From positions 21,377-85,376 of the forward strand of contig JACROC010000006.1 in the NCBI GenBank assembly GCA_016214655.1: a stretch of 64,000 nt of DNA, written 5' to 3'. A program made the position numbers and the translations under genes. The stretch is from Candidatus Harrisonbacteria bacterium. GTDB lineage: Bacteria; Patescibacteriota; Minisyncoccia; UBA6257; 02-FULL-45-10c. Below are positions 804-62,271 of this stretch, piece by piece. Position 1 is the stretch's first letter. Every line of letters begins with the position of its first letter. The notes under the pieces were generated by a model, which saw nothing but the letters and a program-made list of their open reading frames with translations, made no database searches and was not told the origin of the DNA.

Positions 804-1940
804 ATGTATTTTTATTATCGCATACGAAATTGGATTTTTATCTCGCTTAGCATAATTTTATCCCCGGTCATTTTTCTTATTATTCGGTGGCGGGCTCGCA
901 GAAAAAGCGGCAGCCAATTCCCGAGAATTCTTGTGATTCCGCAGTTTACCCGAATCGGCGATGTGGTGTGCGCGACACCGGTGTTCCGGGCGATCAAGAA
1001 GCAATACCCAGAAAGTTTTATCGCGGTAGTGGTGCATAAAAAAGCCGCCGGCATTTTGAAAAATAATCCGCATATCGATGAGGTTATATTATATGGGTAT
1101 GCAAATTTTTTGGACGCGATCCGCCGAATCAGATTCCTTCAATTAAATTGGAGTTTTTGCTTATCCGGAAGTTCCATCGGGAATTTGATGGCATGGTGGG
1201 GAATGATTCCAAATCGTGTTAAATTAACCCGCTCAGGCAGGCCGGTTTCGGAATGGCTGACAGATTGGTTGAATAATTATCAATTTTTTTATGCGCACCA
1301 TACCTATTTGCCTGGCCATTACTTAAAGATGCTTTCGGTATTAGGCATTTCTAATCCGGAAGAGGTAAAAGAAGTTTTTGTTGCTCCAGAAGGGGAGAAA
1401 AAAATCGGACAATTTTTAAAGATTCATCAGATAAGCGAATTTGATATGTTGGTGGGAATGAGTATTACTGCGGGTAATAAAATCAAAGAATGGGGCGACG
1501 GCAAATTCATAGAGCTAGCAAAAAGAATTGTTGCAAAATATACCGCAAAGATTGTTTTTATTGGTGGAAAGAATGATAATGCACGCATTGCATCCTTATT
1601 GGAGAATCTGCCCAAAGTAAGTTATTTCAAGGCGACCGATTTTTCGCTGGAGGAATTGCCTTCTTTGATAAAGCACCTCAAATTATATATTGCAGTGGAT
1701 ACGGGCCCAATATATGTTGCGCATGCACTAAAAACGCCGTTGATTGATATCGTCGGGCCCGTAGATCCTCGGGAACAGCCGCCCCATGATGAGCGCAGTT
1801 TGTTGGTATTGCCGTCAGATGGCATCAATCCGTCAAGCTTTGTATTTAAAAAAGCGGGAGAGGAGGTAAATTATAAGGCAGCTATCGATTCCATTTCAGT
1901 AGAAAGGGTGATGGAAGCAGTAGAAAAATTGATTTCTTAA
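804..1940 (+). CDS. GT9-family glycosyltransferase (ADP-heptose:LPS heptosyltransferase-like)
   Basis: N-terminal motif ILVIPQFTRIGDVVCATPVFRAIKKQYP and C-terminal ...YIAVDTGPIYVAHALKTPLIDIVGP are typical of WaaC/WaaF-type GT9 enzymes. ATG at 804. Confidence 0.65.
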   Translation: MYFYYRIRNWIFISLSIILSPVIFLIIRWRARRKSGSQFPRILVIPQFTRIGDVVCATPVFRAIKKQYPESFIAVVVHKKAAGILKNNPHIDEVILYGYANFLDAIRRIRFLQLNWSFCLSGSSIGNLMAWWGMIPNRVKLTRSGRPVSEWLTDWLNNYQFFYAHHTYLPGHYLKMLSVLGISNPEEVKEVFVAPEGEKKIGQFLKIHQISEFDMLVGMSITAGNKIKEWGDGKFIELAKRIVAKYTAKIVFIGGKNDNARIASLLENLPKVSYFKATDFSLEELPSLIKHLKLYIAVDTGPIYVAHALKTPLIDIVGPVDPREQPPHDERSLLVLPSDGINPSSFVFKKAGEEVNYKAAIDSISVERVMEAVEKLIS

Positions 1941-52809: not shown

Positions 52810-53856
52810 ATGGAGAAATATCGCATTGCTATAAACGGATTTGGCAGAATTGGCCGGCTATTTTTCCGGCAGGCTTTTGGCAACAAAAATTTAAATATCG
52901 TAGCCATTAATGATCTCGGTGACATTGAAAACCTCGCTTATCTTTTAAAATATGATTCGGTTTATCGAACTTATGACAAATCGGTGGAATTCAAGCGGGA
53001 TCCAGGCGGGATTGGCGGGGAATTAATAGTTGATGGAAAAGTAATCAAGGTCATTCAAGAAAAAGATTTAACTAAATTGCCGTGGAAGGATTTAAAAATT
53101 GACGTGGCGGTGGAATCTACTGGCGCCTTTGAATCATTTGAGAGGGCTTCATTTCATGTGACTGCGGCCGGCGCCAGGCGGGTGGTAATTTCTGCTCCAG
53201 CTAAAGATGAGGAGGGTGTTGCCGGAGGTAAAACAATTTTGCTTGGAGTTAACGAAGATGAATTTAAAACCTGCAGGGTGTCTTCCAATGGTTCTTGCAC
53301 TACTAACGCCACTTCTCCGGTAGCGGCGATTATGCATGAGGAGATCGGGATTTTAAAGGCATTTTTGGCCACTACTCATGGTTATACCGCTACGCAGAAT
53401 TTAGTTGATGGTCCGACTAAAGGAAAAGATTTTCGTCGTGGCCGGGCAGCGGCAGTGAATATCGCCCCGTCTTTTACCGGAGCGGCGATTTCCGTAACCA
53501 GGGCGATTAAAGATTTAGAGGGAAAATTTGACGGTATTGCGTTACGCGTGCCGATTGTGACCGGTTCGCTTGGTGATTTTACTTTTCTTACTAAAAGAAA
53601 GACTTCCGCGGAGGAAGTAAATGATATTTTTAGAAAAGCCGCTGATTCAAAACGTTGGAAAGGAATTTTAAAAGTTAGCGAGGATCAGCTGGTTTCTTCG
53701 GATATTATCGGCGAATCGGTGGCTGCTATTGTGGATTTGCAATATACCAAAGTTGTTGACGATGATTTGGTGAAAGTTCTAGCTTGGTACGACAACGAAT
53801 GGGGTTATGTGACTACGTTAGTTACGCATGTATTAAGGGCAGCAGACGCAATTTAA
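52810..53856 (+). CDS. gap: glyceraldehyde-3-phosphate dehydrogenase (type I)
   Basis: RIAINGFGRIGRLFFR...SNGSCTTNATSPVAAIM (catalytic Cys) ...WYDNEWGY. Confidence 0.9.
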   Translation: MEKYRIAINGFGRIGRLFFRQAFGNKNLNIVAINDLGDIENLAYLLKYDSVYRTYDKSVEFKRDPGGIGGELIVDGKVIKVIQEKDLTKLPWKDLKIDVAVESTGAFESFERASFHVTAAGARRVVISAPAKDEEGVAGGKTILLGVNEDEFKTCRVSSNGSCTTNATSPVAAIMHEEIGILKAFLATTHGYTATQNLVDGPTKGKDFRRGRAAAVNIAPSFTGAAISVTRAIKDLEGKFDGIALRVPIVTGSLGDFTFLTKRKTSAEEVNDIFRKAADSKRWKGILKVSEDQLVSSDIIGESVAAIVDLQYTKVVDDDLVKVLAWYDNEWGYVTTLVTHVLRAADAI

Positions 53857-54308
53857 TGCTTGTTTACATTGGCGCTGATCATCGGGGATTTCCTTTAAAG
53901 GAATCCCTTAAAAAATATTTACAGGAAAATGGCTATGAGGCAGTTGATGTTGGGAATAAAAAATTAGATCCTAAAGACGATTATCCTGATTTTGCTTCTA
54001 AGGTTGCTAAAGAAGTCAGTTTAGACCCGGAACACTCTCGGGGTATTGTAATTTGCGGTTCTGGAGTCGGGGTTGATGTGGTAGCGAATAAATATCCGAA
54101 TGTCCGTTCAGCGCTGGCTGCCACGCCGGATCAGGCAATGGATTCCCGCAATGACGACGATACTAATGTCCTTGCTTTGGCGGCTAATTATTTAAGCGAG
54201 GACGAGGCGTTGAAGATTACCGAGGTTTGGCTGCAGACTGATTTTTCCGAGGAAGAGAGGCACTGGAGAAGATTGGGGAAGATTGAAAAAATTGAAGATA
54301 AGCTATAG
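53856..54308 (+). CDS. rpiB: ribose-5-phosphate isomerase B (RpiB/LacAB family)
   Basis: MLVYIGADHRGFPLKE...GIVICGSGVGVDVVANK...ALAANYL. ATG overlaps the gap stop (taATG). Confidence 0.75.
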   Translation: MLVYIGADHRGFPLKESLKKYLQENGYEAVDVGNKKLDPKDDYPDFASKVAKEVSLDPEHSRGIVICGSGVGVDVVANKYPNVRSALAATPDQAMDSRNDDDTNVLALAANYLSEDEALKITEVWLQTDFSEEERHWRRLGKIEKIEDKL

Positions 54309-55037
54309 TTTCTTATAGAGCTGCTTAAAAATCACTTTTTGGAAATCCGATAAGGCGGAATTTTCAATAATTATCGCCTGTTCGGTATTAAGATCAATAA
54401 AGGCTACCCGGTCCCGATAAATTATCTGGATAATGTTTTGATTGAAGAGATCAACTTCTGGCGGAATAAATTTGATAAAACGCTCCAATCGGGGGCGTTT
54501 TTGCTTGCCGGATATTGGATTGCTGATTACTAACCGTTCCAATCGTTTTTTGTCACGACGCTCACGATAATCTGGAGCTAAATAGCGATTTACCGCTGCC
54601 AGGTCGCGTTCTGAGGTATAACGGTAGAAGGTGTCTCTGGGCTTGCTATGATTAATGACATCGTCAAAAACTGCGCGGATTCCTTTTGGCCCGTGAAAAA
54701 TTCGCATGGAGCTGTTTACAGTTTCGGCATGGGAAAGGTCTTGATTTTTTATTGATCCAGCGAGACTTTCAAGGTTTTTGGTAAATAATTTTAAAATGCG
54801 CTGGCTGTTTTCGGGAACGTAATAATTTCTCTCCCCAATTTTTTTAGTTGAAATTAATTTTGCATCGAGTAAGGCGCGCAGTGCGCGATAGACTGCCGGC
54901 CGGTGGACTTTAGTTTTGGAAACTATTGCGGTAGCCAGCAGGGGACCGCTATTTTTTACTGCTTGGTAGATTTTATCGGTGTGTTTTGGGAACCCAAGCT
55001 GGATGAAAACTTGGGTGAGCTCTGTAATTTCTTTCAT
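54303..55037 (-). CDS. TrmB-family (sugar-responsive) transcriptional regulator
   Basis: N-terminal wHTH ...IYQAVKNSGPLLATAIVSKTKVHRPAVYRALRALLDAKLIS... plus a TrmB-like C-domain. Divergent from prs. Confidence 0.55.
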   Translation of the reverse strand: MKEITELTQVFIQLGFPKHTDKIYQAVKNSGPLLATAIVSKTKVHRPAVYRALRALLDAKLISTKKIGERNYYVPENSQRILKLFTKNLESLAGSIKNQDLSHAETVNSSMRIFHGPKGIRAVFDDVINHSKPRDTFYRYTSERDLAAVNRYLAPDYRERRDKKRLERLVISNPISGKQKRPRLERFIKFIPPEVDLFNQNIIQIIYRDRVAFIDLNTEQAIIIENSALSDFQKVIFKQLYKKL

Positions 55038-55044
55038 AATATGA

Positions 55045-55062
55045 GTGTACTTTATTTAGTAC
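55045..55062. promoter_or_regulatory. 18-bp palindromic operator-like site TGTACTTTATTTAGTACA (copy 1), between the TrmB-like gene and prs
   Basis: Perfect inverted repeat TGTACT / AGTACA. With flanks, 31 of 33 bp identical to the copy at 57095-57128. Confidence 0.5.
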
Positions 55063-55139
55063 ATATTTTCAAGTTTTTTTGCGGAAATTTAGCATATCTG
55101 ATATGCTCATGGGGTTGTTCTTTGAAAAGGAGGCAGGAA

Positions 55140-56132
55140 ATGAACCCGTCCCACGAAAACTTATTTGTTCTGGTTTCTTCGCCGCTAATGTATGATCTTG
55201 GCGAGGCAATCATACGGCATCTGGAGGGCCGTAAGATGCAGATGGCGCATCATCGGATTGAATACACCAGTTTTGCCAATGGCGAGTTTCTTCCATACAT
55301 TCCGCAGCCGATCCGCGGACAACATGCCTTTTTTCTTCATGGGCTTCAGCACCCCGATCCTAATTCGGCGGTTATGAAGATGCTTTTGACGGCCGATGCC
55401 ATGCGCCGCGCTTCAGTGGCGGGCATTACTTTAGTGACTCCGTATCTTCCATATTTGCGGCAGGATCGCAAAGACCGGGCGCGGGTGCCGATTTCAGCCA
55501 GGCTTCTCGCTGACTTGATTGAATCTAACCGGACAGTGAAGCAATTGATTACGATTGATATGCACGCTGAGCAGGAGCAGGGATTTTTCTCGATTCCGGT
55601 TGATAATTTAACCGGCGTTCGCCTGTTTTCGGAACACATCCGGGCGAAGTTCGGAGATGATGTCAAAAATCTGGTTGCGGTGGCGGCGGATTTCGGAGCT
55701 GCGGTGCGCACCCGGAGATTAGCGAGGGCGCTCGGTGATATTCCGGCTGCGATCTTTGAGAAGCGGCGGCCAACGCCGAATCAGGCAGAGATTGTTTCTG
55801 TTAATGGTACTAGTGTTGCGGGTAAAGAGGTGGTTATTTACGAAGACATGATTGATACCGGACATACTATTTTAGGAGTTATAAAGACTCTAAAAAATAT
55901 GGGTGCCCGGGGAGTTCATGTTTATGCGACTCATGGGATTTTTAGCGGCGGCGCTGAAAAACATTTTGCTGCTGAAGATTCTGCTGTTGTCTGCACTGAT
56001 TCGATTCCGCGAACGGTTGAATATTATCAGAGGGAGAAATGGCTGACCAGAATTCCGATTGACGCCTATTTTGCTGAAGCTATTTATGCGGCAACGCAGA
56101 TGGGCGGCAGCATCAGCAGGCTTGCGCAATGA
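55140..56132 (+). CDS. prs: ribose-phosphate pyrophosphokinase (PRPP synthase)
   Basis: RBS aaggagg, then MNPSHENLFVLVSS...YTSFANGEF...LITIDMHAEQ...YEDMIDTGHT. ATG at 55140. Confidence 0.85.
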   Translation: MNPSHENLFVLVSSPLMYDLGEAIIRHLEGRKMQMAHHRIEYTSFANGEFLPYIPQPIRGQHAFFLHGLQHPDPNSAVMKMLLTADAMRRASVAGITLVTPYLPYLRQDRKDRARVPISARLLADLIESNRTVKQLITIDMHAEQEQGFFSIPVDNLTGVRLFSEHIRAKFGDDVKNLVAVAADFGAAVRTRRLARALGDIPAAIFEKRRPTPNQAEIVSVNGTSVAGKEVVIYEDMIDTGHTILGVIKTLKNMGARGVHVYATHGIFSGGAEKHFAAEDSAVVCTDSIPRTVEYYQREKWLTRIPIDAYFAEAIYAATQMGGSISRLAQ

Positions 56133-56656
56133 ATCTCAAAGAATATATTCGCGATGTGCCGGATTTCCCAAGAAAAGGTATTTTGTTTAGGGATATTACA
56201 TCCTTACTGGAACAGCCGGAGGCATTTAGAGAAGTTATCAGAGAAATGTCAACTAAGTGGCGCGATAAGATTGACGTCATTACAGCCCTGGATGCCCGGG
56301 GCTTTATTTTCGGCGGGGCGCTTTCGGTAGAGCTTGGAGTTCCTCTGGTGCTTGCGCGAAAGAAAGGAAAATTGCCGGGAAAAACTGTGAGCGTTTCTTA
56401 CGGATTGGAATATGGCACTGATACTTTAGAGATGCATGCTGATTCTTTGACTTCGGGAATGCGCGTTTTGGTGGTTGATGATTTACTGGCAACCGGAGGT
56501 ACGGCAAGCGCAGCTTGCTCGCTTATCGAAAAATTAGGCGCAGAAGTAGCGGGATGCGCTTTTGTAATTGAACTAGAAGGATTGGGAGGCCGTGAGAATC
56601 TTAGCAAATATCAAATACAATCACTTGTGCGTTACACCGAGGAAACAAATGAATAA
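56129..56656 (+). CDS. apt: adenine phosphoribosyltransferase
   Basis: IRDVPDFPRKGILFRDITSLL...VLVVDDLLATGGTA (PRPP-binding motif). Confidence 0.9.
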   Translation: MNLKEYIRDVPDFPRKGILFRDITSLLEQPEAFREVIREMSTKWRDKIDVITALDARGFIFGGALSVELGVPLVLARKKGKLPGKTVSVSYGLEYGTDTLEMHADSLTSGMRVLVVDDLLATGGTASAACSLIEKLGAEVAGCAFVIELEGLGGRENLSKYQIQSLVRYTEETNE

Positions 56657-57056
56657 TCCAGCTAAAATTATTTATTGCGCTGATGTCATTGCGCGATATG
56701 GAGAACATATTGTCATTGTAGAGCGACTTGGTTCGGTAAAAGGTTTGGCGCTTCCAGGAGGAAAGCAGGATCCTGGTGAAACTCTTTCGCAAACAGTTAA
56801 GCGAGAATTTCTTGAAGAAACTGGCCTCGAGCTCGTTATTGAAGAAGTATTAGGAACGCGAGCTGAAGACGGCCGTGATCTGCGCGGAAGATATGTTTCA
56901 ACAATATTTCTTGGAACCGCGCATGGTGTGCCGCGTGACGAGGTTGGTAAAACTCGAGTAAAGTTTTTTGATCTTCAGACGCTTGCAGAAAATAGACATC
57001 TTTTTGTCTTTGATCACGCAATTATTCTGGAAGAGTATCGCCGCCTAGTAGGTTAA
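56649..57056 (+). CDS. NUDIX hydrolase
   Basis: Nudix box GGKQDPGETLSQTVKREFLEETGLEL. ATG at 56649. Confidence 0.75.
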   Translation: MNNPAKIIYCADVIARYGEHIVIVERLGSVKGLALPGGKQDPGETLSQTVKREFLEETGLELVIEEVLGTRAEDGRDLRGRYVSTIFLGTAHGVPRDEVGKTRVKFFDLQTLAENRHLFVFDHAIILEEYRRLVG

Positions 57057-57074
57057 TCCGAACGGCGGTTTTTT
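57039..57074 (+). repeat. 36-bp segment CGCCGCCTAGTAGGTTAATCCGAACGGCGGTTTTTT (terminator-like: GC stem plus T6), copy 1
   Basis: Exact duplicate of 57726-57761. Spans the last codons and stop of the NUDIX gene plus a ccgcc...ggcgg hairpin and a T-run. Confidence 0.6.
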
Positions 57075-57095
57075 GTTGCGGGCGATCCATTATTT

Positions 57096-57113
57096 TGTAC
57101 TTTATTTAGTACA
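57096..57113. promoter_or_regulatory. 18-bp palindromic operator-like site TGTACTTTATTTAGTACA (copy 2), upstream of ORF 57198
   Basis: Identical palindrome plus the conserved flank ATTTTCAA. Possible -35/-10 TTGTAC-17-TTCAAT overlapping it. Confidence 0.5.
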
Positions 57114-57197
57114 GATTTTCAATTTTTCCAGCATAAATTTTTAAATTCTATTATATTCATTAAGCAGTTCTTTGAAATCGTAAACAGGAGGTGGCTC

Positions 57198-57716
57198 ATG
57201 GAGATCGAGTTGTATCGAAATACTAAAGCCGAGATTCCGGATGGTGAGAAAGAGAAGGATTCTTCAATTAAGAAAGCCCAAGAGCTTTGCAAACGTTATA
57301 GGAATTTGGGGTTAGAAGGGCAGGCTACCATGATTGAAAAAGCGATAAAAGTTGGTGGGCCGCTTATCACTGATAAGATTAAGCCGGATTTATTTTGGCG
57401 GAAAATATCTGATAATGACTTGCGTATTTGGAGAATTTTTTTACCAACCAGTTATAGATCTGATTTGGGGCCTGGCAGGACACTCGCAAGCTATGCTTTT
57501 GACCAAATACCGGAAGAAGTAATTTCGGAGTTTGAGTTAGCAAAAGCACTGCGTTTATTTAATGTTTACGAAGTTAGGACTCCTGAAGGAAGGAATATTG
57601 ATCCGATTTTGATTGGATTGTACGGCAATACCTCATATCTTATTGCTCGCTGGGGGGAAAGCTTGCAATCGTTTGAGGAAATTAAAAGACAAGTGCGTCA
57701 AAGCAGAGGTTGGTAA
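57198..57716 (+). CDS. hypothetical protein
   Basis: RBS acaggagg. 172 aa with no recognisable motif. Bracketed by the duplicated operator and the duplicated terminator segment. Confidence 0.3.
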   Translation: MEIELYRNTKAEIPDGEKEKDSSIKKAQELCKRYRNLGLEGQATMIEKAIKVGGPLITDKIKPDLFWRKISDNDLRIWRIFLPTSYRSDLGPGRTLASYAFDQIPEEVISEFELAKALRLFNVYEVRTPEGRNIDPILIGLYGNTSYLIARWGESLQSFEEIKRQVRQSRGW

Positions 57717-57725
57717 AATTATCAG

Positions 57726-57761
57726 CGCCGCCTAGTAGGTTAATCCGAACGGCGGTTTTTT
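57726..57761 (+). repeat. 36-bp terminator-like segment, copy 2
   Basis: Identical to 57039-57074. Confidence 0.6.
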
Positions 57762-57829
57762 ATTTGTATAAGAATTTATTTTATGTTATTTTTTAGTCAG
57801 CAAGAATATTGAAAAGATAAAGAGGCCGG

Positions 57830-58546
57830 ATGATTTCGGAAAAAATCAGCACTTTGGTTTTAATCAGGCACGGCAGATCTTTGAGGAATGTTTATGAAAC
57901 TGCCGGGCCGTTTTATGAAAATAATGAGCAGAGGAGAAAAGTAGGAATTTCGCAGGATCGTTTAATACCGCTGGTTGAGGAAGGATGGGAACAGGCACGC
58001 GGAGCAGGCAAGGGCATTCGCGAATTGTTCGGTGTACCCAATTACCTTTTTAATTCCGGATTTGTAAGAACCAAGCAGACAACCGAAGGGATTTTAGAAG
58101 CCTATTCCGCGGAGGAGCTGAAAAGTTTGACTATTATAGAAAGCCATTTGATCAGGGAGCGCAATCCAGGATATCTTTGGAATTTTACGGTTGCGGAAGT
58201 TGAGAAATTTTTTCCGTGGTGGGAAGAGTATTGGAGAAAAGCTGATCCGTTTATTACTTTTCCGCTTGGCGGCGAAAGTATGGCGAGTATATGCGAGGGA
58301 AGGCTGGCGGCTTTCTTACGTAATTTGGATGGAGAGCTGGCATATGTGCCAGGCGGATCCAAAGTTTTCGTTGTCTCTCACGGCCGGGCGATTTTGGGAA
58401 TGCGGTATCTTTTGGAGAATTGGAACTATGAAAGAATTCATTCTGCTTTGCGCAATGAAAATCCGCCGAATTGTTCCGTTACTTGGTATCAATTTGATAA
58501 TTCTGGAAAAGCAGAATTACAGTTTGCTAATAAAGTTTTTTATTAA
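57830..58546 (+). CDS. histidine phosphatase-family protein (phosphoglycerate-mutase-like)
   Basis: LVLIRHGRSLRN (RHG catalytic motif) and a later His in VSHGRAIL. Confidence 0.55.
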   Translation: MISEKISTLVLIRHGRSLRNVYETAGPFYENNEQRRKVGISQDRLIPLVEEGWEQARGAGKGIRELFGVPNYLFNSGFVRTKQTTEGILEAYSAEELKSLTIIESHLIRERNPGYLWNFTVAEVEKFFPWWEEYWRKADPFITFPLGGESMASICEGRLAAFLRNLDGELAYVPGGSKVFVVSHGRAILGMRYLLENWNYERIHSALRNENPPNCSVTWYQFDNSGKAELQFANKVFY

Positions 58547-58575: not shown

Positions 58576-58611
58576 CCCCAGTTATATTTGCTATAGCAAA
58601 TATAACTGGGG
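58576..58611. repeat. 36-bp perfect palindrome, copy 3
   Basis: CCCCAGTTATATTTGCTATAGCAAATATAACTGGGG. Differs from copy 1 by paired (compensatory) substitutions that keep the symmetry perfect. 39 bp upstream of rpe. Confidence 0.8.
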
Positions 58612-58650
58612 TTGGGGCAATATATTTAATTTTTATGGTAAAATATCAAT

Positions 58651-59292
58651 ATGCAAGTAATTCCGGCAATTAATGAAACTATTTTTTCGGAGATAGAGGA
58701 TAAGATAAAAAAAGCCCATGCTTTTGGAGCCGGGTGGGTGCATTTGGATGTAAGCGACGGAAAATTTACGAAAAATACGCTTTGGAATAATCCGAAAGAT
58801 TTAGCTGGTATTTATGCTACGCGGGAACAGCACCCACACATTGAGGTTCATTTGATGGTGGAAAATCCGGATGAGGTCTTAGATGATTGGCTGGATGCCG
58901 GCGTTAAACGAGTGATCGTTCATGTTGAGGCTGTAAAAGATGTTGACGTTATGAAAATGAAATGCGGGATGTTTGGTGTACAGTTGGTATTGGCATCAAA
59001 CCCAGATACGCCAGTAGAGCAATTATTAAAATATAAGGACGACACAGGTGAATTTCTAATCTTAGCTGTTAATCCGGGTCTGGCTGGACAGAAATTTCAA
59101 GAGAATCAGTTAGAGAAAATTAAAACTTTGCGGCAGAAATTTCCTGATGCTAAAATTGAAGTAGACGGCGGAGTTAATTTAGAAAATGCGCCGAAAATTA
59201 AGGAAGCCGGCGCAGATATTCTTGTTGCGGCATCGGCTATTTGGGGGAGTAAGGATCCGAAAGAAGCATATAATAAATTGTCAGAGGTTTAG
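58651..59292 (+). CDS. rpe: ribulose-phosphate 3-epimerase-like
   Basis: VIPAINETIFSEIEDKIKK...WVHLDVSDGKFTKNTLW...HLMVENP...VDGGVN (ribulose-phosphate-binding barrel). Confidence 0.7.
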   Translation: MQVIPAINETIFSEIEDKIKKAHAFGAGWVHLDVSDGKFTKNTLWNNPKDLAGIYATREQHPHIEVHLMVENPDEVLDDWLDAGVKRVIVHVEAVKDVDVMKMKCGMFGVQLVLASNPDTPVEQLLKYKDDTGEFLILAVNPGLAGQKFQENQLEKIKTLRQKFPDAKIEVDGGVNLENAPKIKEAGADILVAASAIWGSKDPKEAYNKLSEV

Positions 59293-59295
59293 TGT

Positions 59296-60162
59296 ATGGC
59301 AGAGTTGCACGAAAATAAATTAAAATTTTTAGAGGAGATGGCGAATAAGATCCGCCAGGATATTATTTCTTCTTTAGTAGAAGCAAAATCCGGGCATTCT
59401 GCCGGTCCTTTGGGGATGGCGGATATTTTTGCCGCGCTTTATTTTCATATTTTAAATCATGACCCGAAAAATCCGGCTTGGCCGGATCGCGATCGGGTGG
59501 TGGTTTCTAATGGCCATATTTGCCCAGTGCTTTATGCGACGCTAGCTAATGCTAATTATTTTCCAGTGGAGGAATTGATGACTTTAAGGAAAATAAATTC
59601 ACGTCTACAGGGCCATCCTCATCGCAATTCATTGCCGGGGCTGGAGACAACTTCCGGTCCGCTTGGTTCCGGAATTTCACAATCAATTGGCATGGCGTTA
59701 GCGGCCAGATTAGATAAAAAGAAATATCGGATCTATTGTCTTACTTCTGACGGTGAGCATCAGGAGGGAAATACCTGGGAAGCGGTTATGTTTGCGGGCA
59801 AGCAAAAATCCAAGCTCAATAATTTAACCGTGATTATGGACCGGAATAATATCCAAATTGACGGTTTCACGGAGGAAGTGATGCCGCTGGAGCCGCTTCG
59901 CCAAAAATATGAAGTTTTTGGCTGGCATGTCATTGATGTGAGCGGCCATGACATTGCGGAATTTGTTTCCGCGGTTAATGAGGCGAAGGCGATTTATGAA
60001 AAGCCGACCATGATTATCGCCCATACCATACCCGGCAAAGGGGTGAGTTTTATGGAGAATGATTATGTTTGGCATGGCAAGCCGCCAAATCCGGAAGAAG
60101 CGAAAGCGGCTTTATTGGAATTAAGGACGCTTGGCGGACAGATTAAGTCAGAACACGAATAG
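59296..60162 (+). CDS. tkt: transketolase, N-terminal (TPP-binding) subunit of a split enzyme
   Basis: SGHSAGPLGMADIFAALYFHILNHDP...DRVVVSNGHICPVLYATL...GSGISQSIGMALAARL...LTSDGEHQEGNTWEA. Confidence 0.85.
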   Translation: MAELHENKLKFLEEMANKIRQDIISSLVEAKSGHSAGPLGMADIFAALYFHILNHDPKNPAWPDRDRVVVSNGHICPVLYATLANANYFPVEELMTLRKINSRLQGHPHRNSLPGLETTSGPLGSGISQSIGMALAARLDKKKYRIYCLTSDGEHQEGNTWEAVMFAGKQKSKLNNLTVIMDRNNIQIDGFTEEVMPLEPLRQKYEVFGWHVIDVSGHDIAEFVSAVNEAKAIYEKPTMIIAHTIPGKGVSFMENDYVWHGKPPNPEEAKAALLELRTLGGQIKSEHE

Positions 60163-60231: not shown

Positions 60232-60480
60232 ATGATGCAAGGTGAACATGGTAAGTGGCATTGGTCTTGTTGCCTGAGGCCGGCCTTGGGAATGCTTCTC
60301 TGGCTTGCCGGGGCAGCAGCTTTAGCATTGGCTTGGTGGGCGGTCTGGAGGCGGGAATTGGTGTGGGGTCTTGAGCCGCTGGCCTGGTACTGGAATGCCT
60401 TAATCCTTGGAGTTTTGGCATTAGGTTGCAAGGGACACGGTAGCGGACATTGTGGTACTTGTATGCCAGAATCTAAATAA
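60232..60480. other. GC-rich, G+T-skewed ~250-bp island between the two transketolase genes (compositional anomaly; coding status unclear)
   Basis: Top strand is dominated by G and T with few A (ggccttggg, ggcttgccgggg, ggcttggtgggcggtctggaggcggg...). ORFs open in several frames on both strands. The + ORF has no RBS and gives a Trp/Ala/Leu/Gly-rich product. Confidence 0.5.
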
Positions 60481-60546
60481 TAGAGAAAATTCTCGAGAAT
60501 TTTCACTGTGGCTCCGCTTTGCGGGGCTACCAGAAAGTTTTTGAGC

Positions 60547-61560
60547 ATGCTTAATTCCAACGCAAAAATTAATTCTAAAATATTTGATGCCGATATTGAG
60601 TATCGGCCGACTCGCGATGGTTATGGCGAAGGTTTGGTGATTGCCGGCGAACAAGATCCAAATGTGGTAGTTTTATGCGCCGATCTTACCGAATCCACCC
60701 GCTCCGAAGGATTTGCTAAAAAATTTCCGGAAAGATTTTTTGAGGTGGGCGTGGCAGAGCAGAATCTGGCAACCATTGCTTCCGGGCTTGGTGTCAGCGG
60801 CAAGATTCCTTTTATTTCTTCTTACGCAACTTTTTCTCCGGGAAGAAATTGGGAGCAAATCCGCACTACGATTTCTTACAATGATTCCAATGTGAAAATT
60901 GCCGGCGCCCATGCGGGAATTTCTGTCGGTCCGGATGGCGCAACGCATCAAGCGATAGAAGATATTGCAACTATGCGGGTGATGGCAAACATGAAGGTGA
61001 TTGTTCCTTGTGATGCGGTCGAAGCAAAAAAGGCGACCATGGCGGCGGCAAAAATCTGGGGTCCGGTTTACTTGCGTTTCGGCCGGGAAAAAATGCCAGT
61101 TTTTACAACCGAAGAAACACCATTTATTCCCGGGAAGGCGGAAATTTTCTGGGAATCTACCGGGAAAAAAAGCCGCGCCAAAAAACCGCAAGTTGTGATA
61201 GTCGGCTGCGGTTCGCTGGTTCATTATGCGTTGTTGGCCGCCAAAGAACTGGAAGAAGAGGGAATCGGAACCATAGTAATAAACAGTCACACTATCAAGC
61301 CCCTAGATGAAAAAACTATTTTAACAGCCGCAGAAGATTGCGGAGCGGTAGTGACGGTGGAAGAACATCAGGTGTTGGGCGGGCTTGGTGGGGCGGTAGC
61401 GGAATTGCTCGCCAAAAAATTGCCGATCCCCATGGAATTTATCGGAATGCAGAATGTTTTTGGCGAATCTGGCCCGCCCAAAGAATTGATAGAGAAGTAT
61501 GGAATGGGAGTGGAAGATATCAAGGCGGCGGTGAAAAAGGTTTTGAAAAGAAGAAAATAA
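60547..61560 (+). CDS. tkt: transketolase, C-terminal (pyrimidine-binding plus C-domain) subunit
   Basis: GEGLVIAGEQDPNVVVLCADLTESTRS...FFEVGVAEQNLATIASGLGVSGKIPFISSYATF. ATG at 60547. Confidence 0.85.
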   Translation: MLNSNAKINSKIFDADIEYRPTRDGYGEGLVIAGEQDPNVVVLCADLTESTRSEGFAKKFPERFFEVGVAEQNLATIASGLGVSGKIPFISSYATFSPGRNWEQIRTTISYNDSNVKIAGAHAGISVGPDGATHQAIEDIATMRVMANMKVIVPCDAVEAKKATMAAAKIWGPVYLRFGREKMPVFTTEETPFIPGKAEIFWESTGKKSRAKKPQVVIVGCGSLVHYALLAAKELEEEGIGTIVINSHTIKPLDEKTILTAAEDCGAVVTVEEHQVLGGLGGAVAELLAKKLPIPMEFIGMQNVFGESGPPKELIEKYGMGVEDIKAAVKKVLKRRK

Positions 61561-61586: not shown

Positions 61587-61635
61587 GGGGTTTATTATCA
61601 AGTCACAGTTCTTTGAGAAACTGCGAGGTTTAGCT

Positions 61636-62271
61636 ATGTCTTTGGTATTGGTGCCTTTGGTTCTGGCGATAGTTATGGCATCAATTATTCTGCATGAAGT
61701 GGCTCACGGATTAGCAGCGCTGATGTTCGGTGATGATACAGCTAAAGAGGCTGGGCGTTTAACTCTTAATCCGATTGTTCACATTGATCTAATCGGATCT
61801 ATTTTTTTGCCGGTGGTGTGTTTATTGATGGGCGCACCGATGATCGGCTGGGCAAAACCGGTTCCGGTAGACTTTAACCGCCTTCCGTCGCGATTTGCCG
61901 ATCTTTGCGTGAGTCTGGCTGGTATTGCAGTTAACTTCACTTTAGCGGTTGGTGCCGGTTTATTGATCCGGACCTCTCCGCATTGGCTGGTATGGATTTT
62001 TGGAAGTGATGTAAGTCAGGGACAGATGTATGCGCTCTTGGGTCCGCTGATGCTCGTAGCGCAGATTAATTTAGTTCTCGGAGTCTTTAATCTGATGCCC
62101 GTGCCGCCACTGGATGGCTGGCGCATCTGGGGCGTCTGGCTTCCGTATGATTGGAGAATGTTCATTGAGATGAAGGCGATGTGGTTTATGATTGCGCTCT
62201 TTATTCTCTTGCCGTACCTGCCTGTTTTCTGGCTGGTAAATCTTTTGTACACTCTTCTAATCGGTCTTTAA
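61636..62271 (+). CDS. site-2-protease-family (M50) membrane metalloprotease
   Basis: HExxH in a TM helix, IILHEVAHGLAAL, with a downstream LDG-type motif (NLMPVPPLDGWRI). ATG at 61636. Confidence 0.7.
   Translation: MSLVLVPLVLAIVMASIILHEVAHGLAALMFGDDTAKEAGRLTLNPIVHIDLIGSIFLPVVCLLMGAPMIGWAKPVPVDFNRLPSRFADLCVSLAGIAVNFTLAVGAGLLIRTSPHWLVWIFGSDVSQGQMYALLGPLMLVAQINLVLGVFNLMPVPPLDGWRIWGVWLPYDWRMFIEMKAMWFMIALFILLPYLPVFWLVNLLYTLLIGL

Follow-up and report, generated by a model that had tools for sequence, protein, structure and literature searches.

The 64-kb window analysed here (64,000 nucleotides of contig JACROC010000006.1 from a Candidatus Harrisonbacteria bacterium) was found to carry an 18-bp palindrome, TGTACTTTATTTAGTACA, between a gene for a TrmB-like regulator and a divergent operon, prs-apt-NUDIX, for synthesis of phosphoribosyl pyrophosphate (PRPP) and adenine salvage. 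Palindrome and regulator gene occur together at orthologous loci across the Parcubacteria, and they very probably constitute a real, conserved and apparently undescribed pair of transcription factor and operator for PRPP synthesis and adenine salvage. The reading favoured here as a whole, at a probability of roughly 0.68, is that the palindrome is the operator of the TrmB-like protein, that binding to it would repress the regulator's own promoter and control prs from a position near -60, and that a second copy of the palindrome in the window is a duplicate. As a type the circuit is ordinary, being that of an autoregulated local TrmB-family factor with a palindromic operator. Its core features in the window are the following.

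Positions 54303-55037, minus strand: gene of the TrmB-like regulator, 244 aa, with a winged helix-turn-helix (HTH), a long helix and a PLD-like C-terminal domain.
Positions 55046-55063: operator copy 1, an exact match to the palindrome scoring 24.7 bits, at a place that is filled in 38 of 40 orthologous loci.
Positions 55140-56132, plus strand: prs, assigned by Pfam and NCBIfam.
Positions 56129-56656, plus strand: apt, assigned by Pfam and NCBIfam.
Positions 56649-57056, plus strand: NUDIX gene, encoding a separate 135-aa protein without an HTH.
Positions 55140-57056, plus strand: prs-apt-NUDIX operon, in which stops and starts overlap.

Exactly two copies of TGTACTTTATTTAGTACA are present in the window, at 55046-55063 and 57096-57113, as a preliminary description of this DNA had reported, and a search that tolerated three mismatches brought no third copy to light there (0.05 expected). 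A search for TGTACT-N6-AGTACA with two mismatches gave just two extra sites in the window, intragenic and unconvincing, and with a matrix derived from the orthologous sites both copies scored 24.7 bits, the runner-up in the window reaching 8.3 bits. The long similarity claimed for the flanks of the two copies is real, although 30 and not 31 of the 33 positions are identical, and it runs on without gaps to 82 nt at 74% identity (55046-55127 versus 57096-57177). The gene identities proposed at the same time (regulator, prs, apt, NUDIX, His_Phos_1, rpe, tkt, gap and rpiB) proved correct by Pfam and NCBIfam. Copy 1 precedes the regulator's start codon by 8 nt, and its centre falls at about -60 relative to the start site predicted for prs. 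The apt and NUDIX genes overlap by 8 nt (56649-56656).

Species-representative genomes were scanned with an alignment of 28 regulator sequences, which gave 40 loci; the fetched loci cover about 20 kb per genome, and gene starts in them were called by a simple ribosome-binding site (RBS) rule. In 31 of the 40 loci the regulator gene is closely preceded by an exact TGTA-N10-TACA, and seven further loci have the palindrome at the same place with one mismatch, so that the proposed association of the palindrome with the TrmB-like gene holds in 38 loci. The two loci without the site are L032 and L040, the latter with an archaeal protein of 24% identity. The consensus of the family is TGTA-N10-TACA, or more fully TGTAhYAAAwAnnRTACA, and amounts to about 21 bits. 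Frequent occurrence at unrelated sites, or absence at orthologs, had been named in the preliminary description as what would speak against the motif; the outcome favours the site, since it is in place in 38/40 loci and a matrix scan of 693 kb gave 46 sites of at least 16 bits versus one in shuffled sequence. Homologues of the regulator, full length and at least 50% identical, are found throughout the Parcubacteria, and a Candidatus Harrisonbacteria metagenome-assembled genome encodes a protein with 100% identity to that of the window.

In metagenome contigs a scan with the exact 18-mer gave 45 matches, about five of which are on Parcubacteria-type contigs and all of these adjoin the regulator; the remaining exact matches are due to chance. 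The same 18-mer was observed in a repeated human-gut metagenome sequence (L050, L054, L062, L076, L088, L091), where an unrelated promoter, TTGAAT-17-TACAAT, has it as spacer and -10 box, and exact matches outside Parcubacteria are attributed to chance on this ground.

The first gene after the site is prs in eight cases, apt in seven, an apt-NUDIX fusion in two, a gene here designated X in 15, Y or Y' in eight, and the window gene ORF172 (an open reading frame, ORF) in one. X encodes a small winged-helix-like protein of about 100 aa, while Y and Y' are small zinc-ribbon-like proteins. All prs, apt, NUDIX, X and Y genes found in the loci belong to the cluster divergent from the regulator. The site is directly upstream of all nine prs genes in the fetched loci, with apt and NUDIX next in the same operons, which bears out the earlier view of the divergent partner as a PRPP and adenine-salvage gene set, and among the many loci where the regulator has the prs-apt-NUDIX set as its divergent neighbour are L001, L044 and L045. 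The NUDIX protein of the window operon gave sub-threshold matches only, several of them to the Nudix part of bifunctional nicotinamide mononucleotide (NMN) adenylyltransferase / ADP-ribose pyrophosphatase. In some Parcubacteria apt and NUDIX are fused to encode one protein of 326-334 aa (L023 7671-8648; L028 7281-8282; L020; L027).

Seven sites stand alone, with no adjacent regulator start, in L010, L012, L016, L023, L028 (twice) and the window (copy 2), and the genes behind them are, in the same order, apt, X, prs, apt-NUDIX, apt-NUDIX, prs and ORF172. These sites retain both half-sites, the regulator's -35 box is gone except in the window, and a -10-like hexamer is at the same offset in 7/7 (TAnnnT in six, CACAAT in L010). 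It is chiefly from these sites, with both halves and the exact spacing kept, that independent evidence comes for an action of the site on the target promoter itself. They also bear on the alternative that the palindrome is a mere promoter shape or duplicated promoter fragment, or is bound by some other, unlinked factor. Such an explanation draws on the fact that the right half doubles as a -10 box, on the origin of copy 2 by duplication of a whole promoter and on the chance occurrence of the same 18-mer in the unrelated gut-bacterial promoter. However, the left half TGTA, of no use to sigma-70, is as conserved as the right half, stand-alone sites elsewhere keep both halves without the regulator's -35 box, and site and regulator gene are found together in 38/40 loci. 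Furthermore, the TGTA-N10-TACA site is absent from the loci in which X is paired with an NrtR-like regulator. The alternative is thus regarded as very improbable.

The latter pairing was observed in Woesebacteria and in another genome of the Candidate Phyla Radiation (CPR), in which X is divergent from an NrtR-like gene (NUDIX and WHD_NrtR domains) with a TTACGTAA-type palindrome between them (L092 4883-5001; L093 4932-5001); X beside an NrtR-like gene in a sister lineage indicates that the same target gene is there under another regulator family. NrtR controls prs-nadV and responds to ADP-ribose, linking Nudix hydrolysis, ribose 5-phosphate and PRPP (PMC2330246). Systems such as nrtR-prs-nadV of Shewanella resemble the one described here in the prs-containing operon, the link to a Nudix protein and to the recycling of ribose 5-phosphate and ADP-ribose, and the palindromes beside the regulator's own gene (PMC2330246), but NrtR belongs to an unrelated family, in which a Nudix effector domain is followed by a C-terminal winged helix, and its motif in L092 and L093 is of the TTACGTAA type. 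Assignment of the window regulator itself to the NrtR family was rejected, as it is without a NUDIX or WHD_NrtR (PF21906) match. The NrtR-like pairing, the biology of NrtR and the NUDIX matches fit, though they do not prove, a theme of ribose-phosphate, PRPP and adenine recycling.

The predicted promoter elements on the two sides of copy 1 are as follows.

Positions 55044-55072, minus strand: regulator promoter from a promoter scan, with -35 TTGAAA at 55072-55067, -10 TACACT at 55049-55044 and a 17-nt spacer.
Positions 55079-55107, plus strand: predicted prs promoter, with a weak -35 TTGCGG at 55079-55084 and -10 TATGCT at 55102-55107.
Positions 55091-55107: second palindrome, AGCATATCTGATATGCT, whose right arm holds the prs -10 box.
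Positions 55117-55125, plus strand: leader motif GTTCTTTGA, within the 5' leader of prs and preserved when the target promoters are aligned.

On the regulator side, operator copy 1 overlaps the spacer and the -10 box of the predicted promoter, and in the window the gap between this -10 box and the ATG is only 6 nt. Taken with two more bases, the right half of the palindrome reads TACAnT, serving as the -10 box, with a TTGAAA-like -35 box 17 nt upstream, and this arrangement recurs in the orthologous loci. The start codon of the regulator is 8 nt past the palindrome in 23 of 30 loci, a distance that leaves no room for an RBS and by which a leaderless regulator mRNA is predicted. An operator over the spacer and -10 box is in the classic position for autorepression; binding there would shut off the regulator gene, and it is probable that the regulator represses its own promoter.

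On the target side, 37 promoters were aligned without gaps, reading away from the regulator, and disclosed a common order of palindrome, TTTCTGCA block, TAnnnT, leader motif, RBS and start codon. TAnnnT starts 38 bp past the palindrome in 31 of them (position 57 from the first palindrome base) and 37 bp past it in another five (position 56), the palindrome centre is about 60 bp upstream of the predicted target start site, and the start codon follows at 74-97 nt from the palindrome. The two copies in the window have an identical offset of 56 nt from the start of the palindrome to the start of the -10 box (TATGCT at 55102-55107 and TATATT at 57152-57157). The TTTCTGCA block is conserved where the -35 element is expected, and the -35 consensus, TCTGCA, is a poor match to TTGACA; three promoters that have the leader motif and lack the palindrome carry TTGACA or TTGACT as their -35 element. 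The block was also considered as a third half-site for the regulator and discarded, because it differs at three informative positions.

Conservation and geometry of the site, target families, fold of the regulator and duplication were computed here; that the protein binds, in which direction it regulates and what effector it senses are inferred. The TrmB-like protein very probably binds the palindrome. A dimer of the 244-aa regulator, with its winged helix, dimerisation helix and PLD-like sensor domain, would occupy the 18-bp site, and at copy 1 it would cover the regulator's own leaderless promoter and bring about autorepression. The same bound dimer would control the divergent prs-apt-NUDIX promoter, and with it PRPP synthase and adenine salvage, from about -60; activation through contact with RNA polymerase is the likelier mode, ahead of repression. 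The cassette at copy 2 would bring one extra gene, ORF172, into the regulon in this lineage only. Relief of competition between back-to-back promoters may add to the effect at the divergent sites. Activation of the prs-type promoter is given a slight preference over repression: the helical phase is fixed, the -35 elements are poor, and the TrmB family offers a precedent, its members being reported to activate from sites upstream of the promoter and to repress from overlapping ones (PMC4158304). By the nature of the target genes, the effector is guessed to be a phosphorylated pentose or nucleotide, such as PRPP, ribose 5-phosphate or ADP-ribose. In class I activation by CRP-type regulators the site is centred near -61.5, and the promoters described here are alike in their dimer site at about -60, fixed helical phase and weak -35; they differ in that the protein is of another family, the site doubles as a predicted autorepression site, and contact with the polymerase is conjectural.

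A competing explanation is purely repressive: bound at the one palindrome, the regulator would keep its own promoter and those of the targets shut, spreading or oligomerising over the -35 region or blocking upstream polymerase contacts, until a metabolite releases it. Local repression is the usual mode of MarR-type and most TrmB-type local regulators, a single operator shared between divergent genes is typical of local repressors, the best structural match of the regulator, TrmBL2, coats DNA, and the conserved TTTCTGCA block between palindrome and -10 box could be a secondary contact. The archaeal TrmB proteins are mostly repressors that are released by sugars (PMC4158304). Against this, the palindrome ends 14 bp before the predicted -35 hexamer and is never over the target core promoter, and in 36 of 37 promoters the distance between it and the -10 box varies by no more than 1 bp, a constancy that steric repression does not need. 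In addition, the target -35 elements are poor, as at activator-dependent promoters, and TGCAGAAA departs from the half-site at three informative positions. Repression as the only mode is considered unlikely.

The leader motif, (A)GTTCWTTGA, is found 7-16 nt past the -10 box in the leaders of regulon genes. It occurs in exact form in 15 of 46 target promoters versus 1 of 692 other genes in the loci, by which a general Parcubacteria leader or Shine-Dalgarno extension is ruled out. A structured RNA or Rfam family was likewise discarded, as no Rfam match was obtained at E up to 1 in 54900-57900 and the three leaders fold no better than shuffles (z-scores +0.3 to +1.3). The motif is also present at 61608-61616, ahead of a Peptidase_M50 gene (61636-62271), with a canonical TTGACT promoter and without the palindrome. 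A more far-reaching scheme, which must be called doubtful, would see in these promoters a phylum-wide code of two elements, the TrmB-like operator fixed at -60 and a regulon-specific GTTCWTTGA leader close to the mRNA start, with which Parcubacteria would govern the single step that all of their nucleotide salvage hinges on, namely PRPP synthesis and the use of PRPP by Apt. In such a code the PLD-fold domain would sense a phosphorylated pentose or nucleotide, X and Y would be second-tier nucleic-acid-binding regulators acting on the leader, and the promoter would be copied as a unit that recruits genes such as ORF172; if true, this would give the Candidate Phyla Radiation its first described conserved regulon of metabolism.

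The second palindrome noted earlier between the operator and prs, AGCATATCTGATATGCT, is present at 55091-55107, but it shares bases with the prs -10 box and relatives do not conserve it: in L044 it is cut to ATATC-T-GATAT, the outer 3 bp being lost without compensation, and in L046 it is absent. A role as second operator was rejected for these reasons. Perfect palindromes of the 8+1+8 form number seven in the window versus 0.87 in shuffles, and AGCATATCTGATATGCT is treated as incidental.

The regulator matches Pfam PF01978 (TrmB-type winged HTH) over residues 14-75 with 27.9 bits, versus a gathering cut-off of 25.6, and a profile of 28 regulator homologues matches the HTH regions of MJ223, TrmB and TrmBL2 in PDB; the HTH is the only part recognisable by sequence. 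Its AlphaFold2 (AF2) model, with a predicted local distance difference test (pLDDT) score of 87, displays a winged helix, a long helix spanning residues 79-100, and a PLD-like domain of the alpha/beta type. Foldseek with this model gave TrmBL2 as the top match, over the full length and with E 4.5e-11, followed by TrmB, and the similarity to these closest solved structures extends over both domains. As modelled, the regulator has the long helix and PLD-like effector subdomain that are characteristic of the TrmB family. The C-terminal sugar-binding barrel of the family is missing, the protein ending at residue 244 after the PLD-like domain, so that the architecture is like that of TrmBL2 and not that of the sugar-sensing TrmB proteins. 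The family consensus does not preserve the HxK-D motif found in catalytic PLD enzymes, and the many invariant Arg and Lys residues of the C-domain appear compatible with an anionic ligand. All seven regulators with the YRC variant of the recognition helix are accompanied by TGTAAC half-sites, versus 5 of 32 others.

Compared with the known systems, TrmBL2 and TrmB (PF01978; PDB 5bpd, 3qph, 2f5t) are alike in the winged helix, long helix and PLD-like domain and, if the regulator binds as predicted, in palindromic recognition sites, TrmBL2 also in size and in the missing sugar-binding barrel, but they are archaeal, whereas the window regulator is bacterial (Parcubacteria) and shares 16-18% identity with them. 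Published TrmB boxes of Archaea are TACT-N3-AGTA, TACT-N7-8-GAGTA and TATCAC-N5-GTGATA (PMC4158304). The comparison with these boxes that the preliminary description had called for gave a divided answer, in that the window site does hold TACT-N6-AGTA, but the spacing differs and the CT/AG positions vary across the family, whose site is TGTA-N10-TACA. The targets differ as well, being sugar uptake, glycolysis and gluconeogenesis for TrmB and PRPP synthase and adenine salvage here, and TrmBL2 is a chromatin protein whose DNA binding is largely non-specific, whereas a specific predicted operator is conserved here. A further comparison is offered by PurR of Bacillus subtilis, an autoregulated, PRPP-sensing repressor of purine genes with a winged helix and a phosphoribosyltransferase-fold sensor. 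It is alike in the winged helix, autoregulation and the tie to PRPP and purines, and the leader motif shares GAAC with the core of the PurBox; it differs in its sensor, which is PLD-like in the window regulator, and the paired PurBoxes (AWWWCCGAACWWT) match neither motif described here. None of the genes at the locus encodes a PurR-like protein.

Copy 2 of the palindrome is part of a cassette downstream of the operon, made up as follows.

Positions 57039-57077, plus strand: terminator-like hairpin after NUDIX, the first copy of a 39-nt direct repeat, with a GCCGCC...GGCGG stem and then a T run.
Positions 57096-57177, plus strand: copy of the promoter module, with operator copy 2 at 57096-57113, a -35 region, -10 TATATT at 57152-57157 and the leader motif at 57167-57175.
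Positions 57198-57716, plus strand: ORF172, encoding a rare hypothetical protein; no other gene would be served by operator copy 2.
Positions 57726-57764, plus strand: second terminator copy, closing the cassette, with the ancestral promoter region of the histidine phosphatase gene behind it.

The 39-nt terminator repeat has two copies only in the window, 97% identical and 687 bp apart, which bracket copy 2 and ORF172 in a 687-bp cassette. The copy 2 region aligns over its whole length with the prs promoters of relatives, with 72% identity to that of L046 versus 64% to the prs promoter of the window. The closest syntenic relative, L044, has a regulator of 73% identity with an identical operator at it, and the gene order tkt-rpe-HisPhos-NUDIX-apt-prs, divergent regulator, rpiB-gap; despite the same synteny, neither ORF172 nor a second site is present in L044, and the sequence past the second terminator copy in the window matches its NUDIX-to-histidine-phosphatase spacer. 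ORF172 has no Pfam, NCBIfam or PHROGs family, just 11 homologues in a large protein collection and no relation to X or Y by BLAST, and its homologues in distant relatives are without the palindrome. As copy 2 and ORF172 are missing from L044 and the homologues of ORF172 lack the site, copy 2 is taken to be a recent, lineage-specific duplicate of the complete regulated prs promoter and not an old member of the regulon, and from the position of the terminator it would drive ORF172 alone, separated from the histidine phosphatase, rpe and tkt genes. The homologues of ORF172 in L041-L043 are always followed by His_Phos_1, in a glycolytic cluster of enolase, ORF172-like, His_Phos_1, gap, pta, ackA and ppdk, which suggests that ORF172 and the phosphoglycerate-mutase-like enzyme are a functional pair.

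These results bear on the wider regulon that had been proposed at first. The genes concerned, on either side of the regulator and the operon, are listed here.

Positions 52810-53856: gap.
Positions 53856-54308: rpiB.
Positions 57830-58546: His_Phos_1 (histidine phosphatase).
Positions 58651-59292: rpe.
Positions 59296-60162 and 60508-61560: tkt (transketolase), split in two.

In that proposal gap-rpiB, the histidine phosphatase gene, rpe and tkt are coupled to PRPP and salvage through the two palindromes. The genes do adjoin, the order tkt-rpe-HisPhos-NUDIX-apt-prs / regulator / rpiB-gap is kept in both L044 and L046, and ribose 5-phosphate is the substrate of Prs. Nevertheless, no site was found before rpiB, gap, histidine phosphatase, rpe or tkt in the window, L044 or L046, and the synteny of L044 is kept without the second site. 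Copy 2, which had been taken for a regulon site ahead of the histidine phosphatase gene, rpe and tkt, serves only ORF172, behind which the terminator at 57726-57764 follows, and the histidine phosphatase gene retains its ancestral upstream region. In distant Parcubacteria the divergent cluster consists of prs, apt, NUDIX, X and Y only and never includes rpe or tkt. A regulon that embraces the pentose-phosphate genes is for these reasons held to be highly unlikely. Conservation of the site is wider than the preliminary description could know, and the scope of the regulon narrows to PRPP synthesis and adenine salvage.

Other features were observed among these neighbouring genes. An 82-aa Trp/Cys-rich ORF at 60232-60480 (plus strand), probably encoding a membrane protein, is situated in the 346-bp gap between the two halves of the transketolase; it has no family match and is conserved in L044 (about 1160-1370, minus strand) as MMQGEH.KWHW.CC...LAWWAVW...LEPLAWYWNAL. 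Two long perfect palindromes are located nearby, one at 58577-58612, CCCCAGTTATATTTGC-TATA-GCAAATATAACTGGGG, situated after the histidine phosphatase gene and before rpe and absent in L044, the other at 60484-60503, GAAAATTCTCGAGAATTTTC, just upstream of the second transketolase half.

Several points weigh against the TrmB-like operator with autorepression and control of prs from -60. The matrix was trained on the autoregulatory sites, which makes their scores circular, and independence of this training is confined to the stand-alone sites and the exact-pattern count. The site counts refer to about 20 kb per genome, the gene starts in the loci depend on the simple RBS rule, and the Parcubacteria-type contigs of the metagenome scan gave autoregulatory sites only. 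The covariation of recognition helix and half-site is confounded by phylogeny, and the promoters are predictions from consensus. Co-localisation could also be compatible with another factor binding the site. A site at -60 could repress, either by oligomerisation along the DNA in the manner of TrmBL2 or by blocking upstream contacts of the polymerase, and relief of competition between back-to-back promoters could by itself explain an effect, without direct activation.

Transcription factors are very scarce in CPR bacteria, whose metabolic regulation is almost wholly unexplored, and a literature search found no paper joining TrmB with Parcubacteria or Patescibacteria. The regulon described here would be among the first conserved ones defined in CPR bacteria. 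The site, its geometry and the list of targets make up a directly testable system, with a motif that can be scanned for in any Parcubacteria genome. A regulator at least 50% identical across the phylum, encoded beside PRPP synthase and adenine phosphoribosyltransferase, would point to a controlled entry into nucleotide salvage, which is indispensable to these host-dependent cells.

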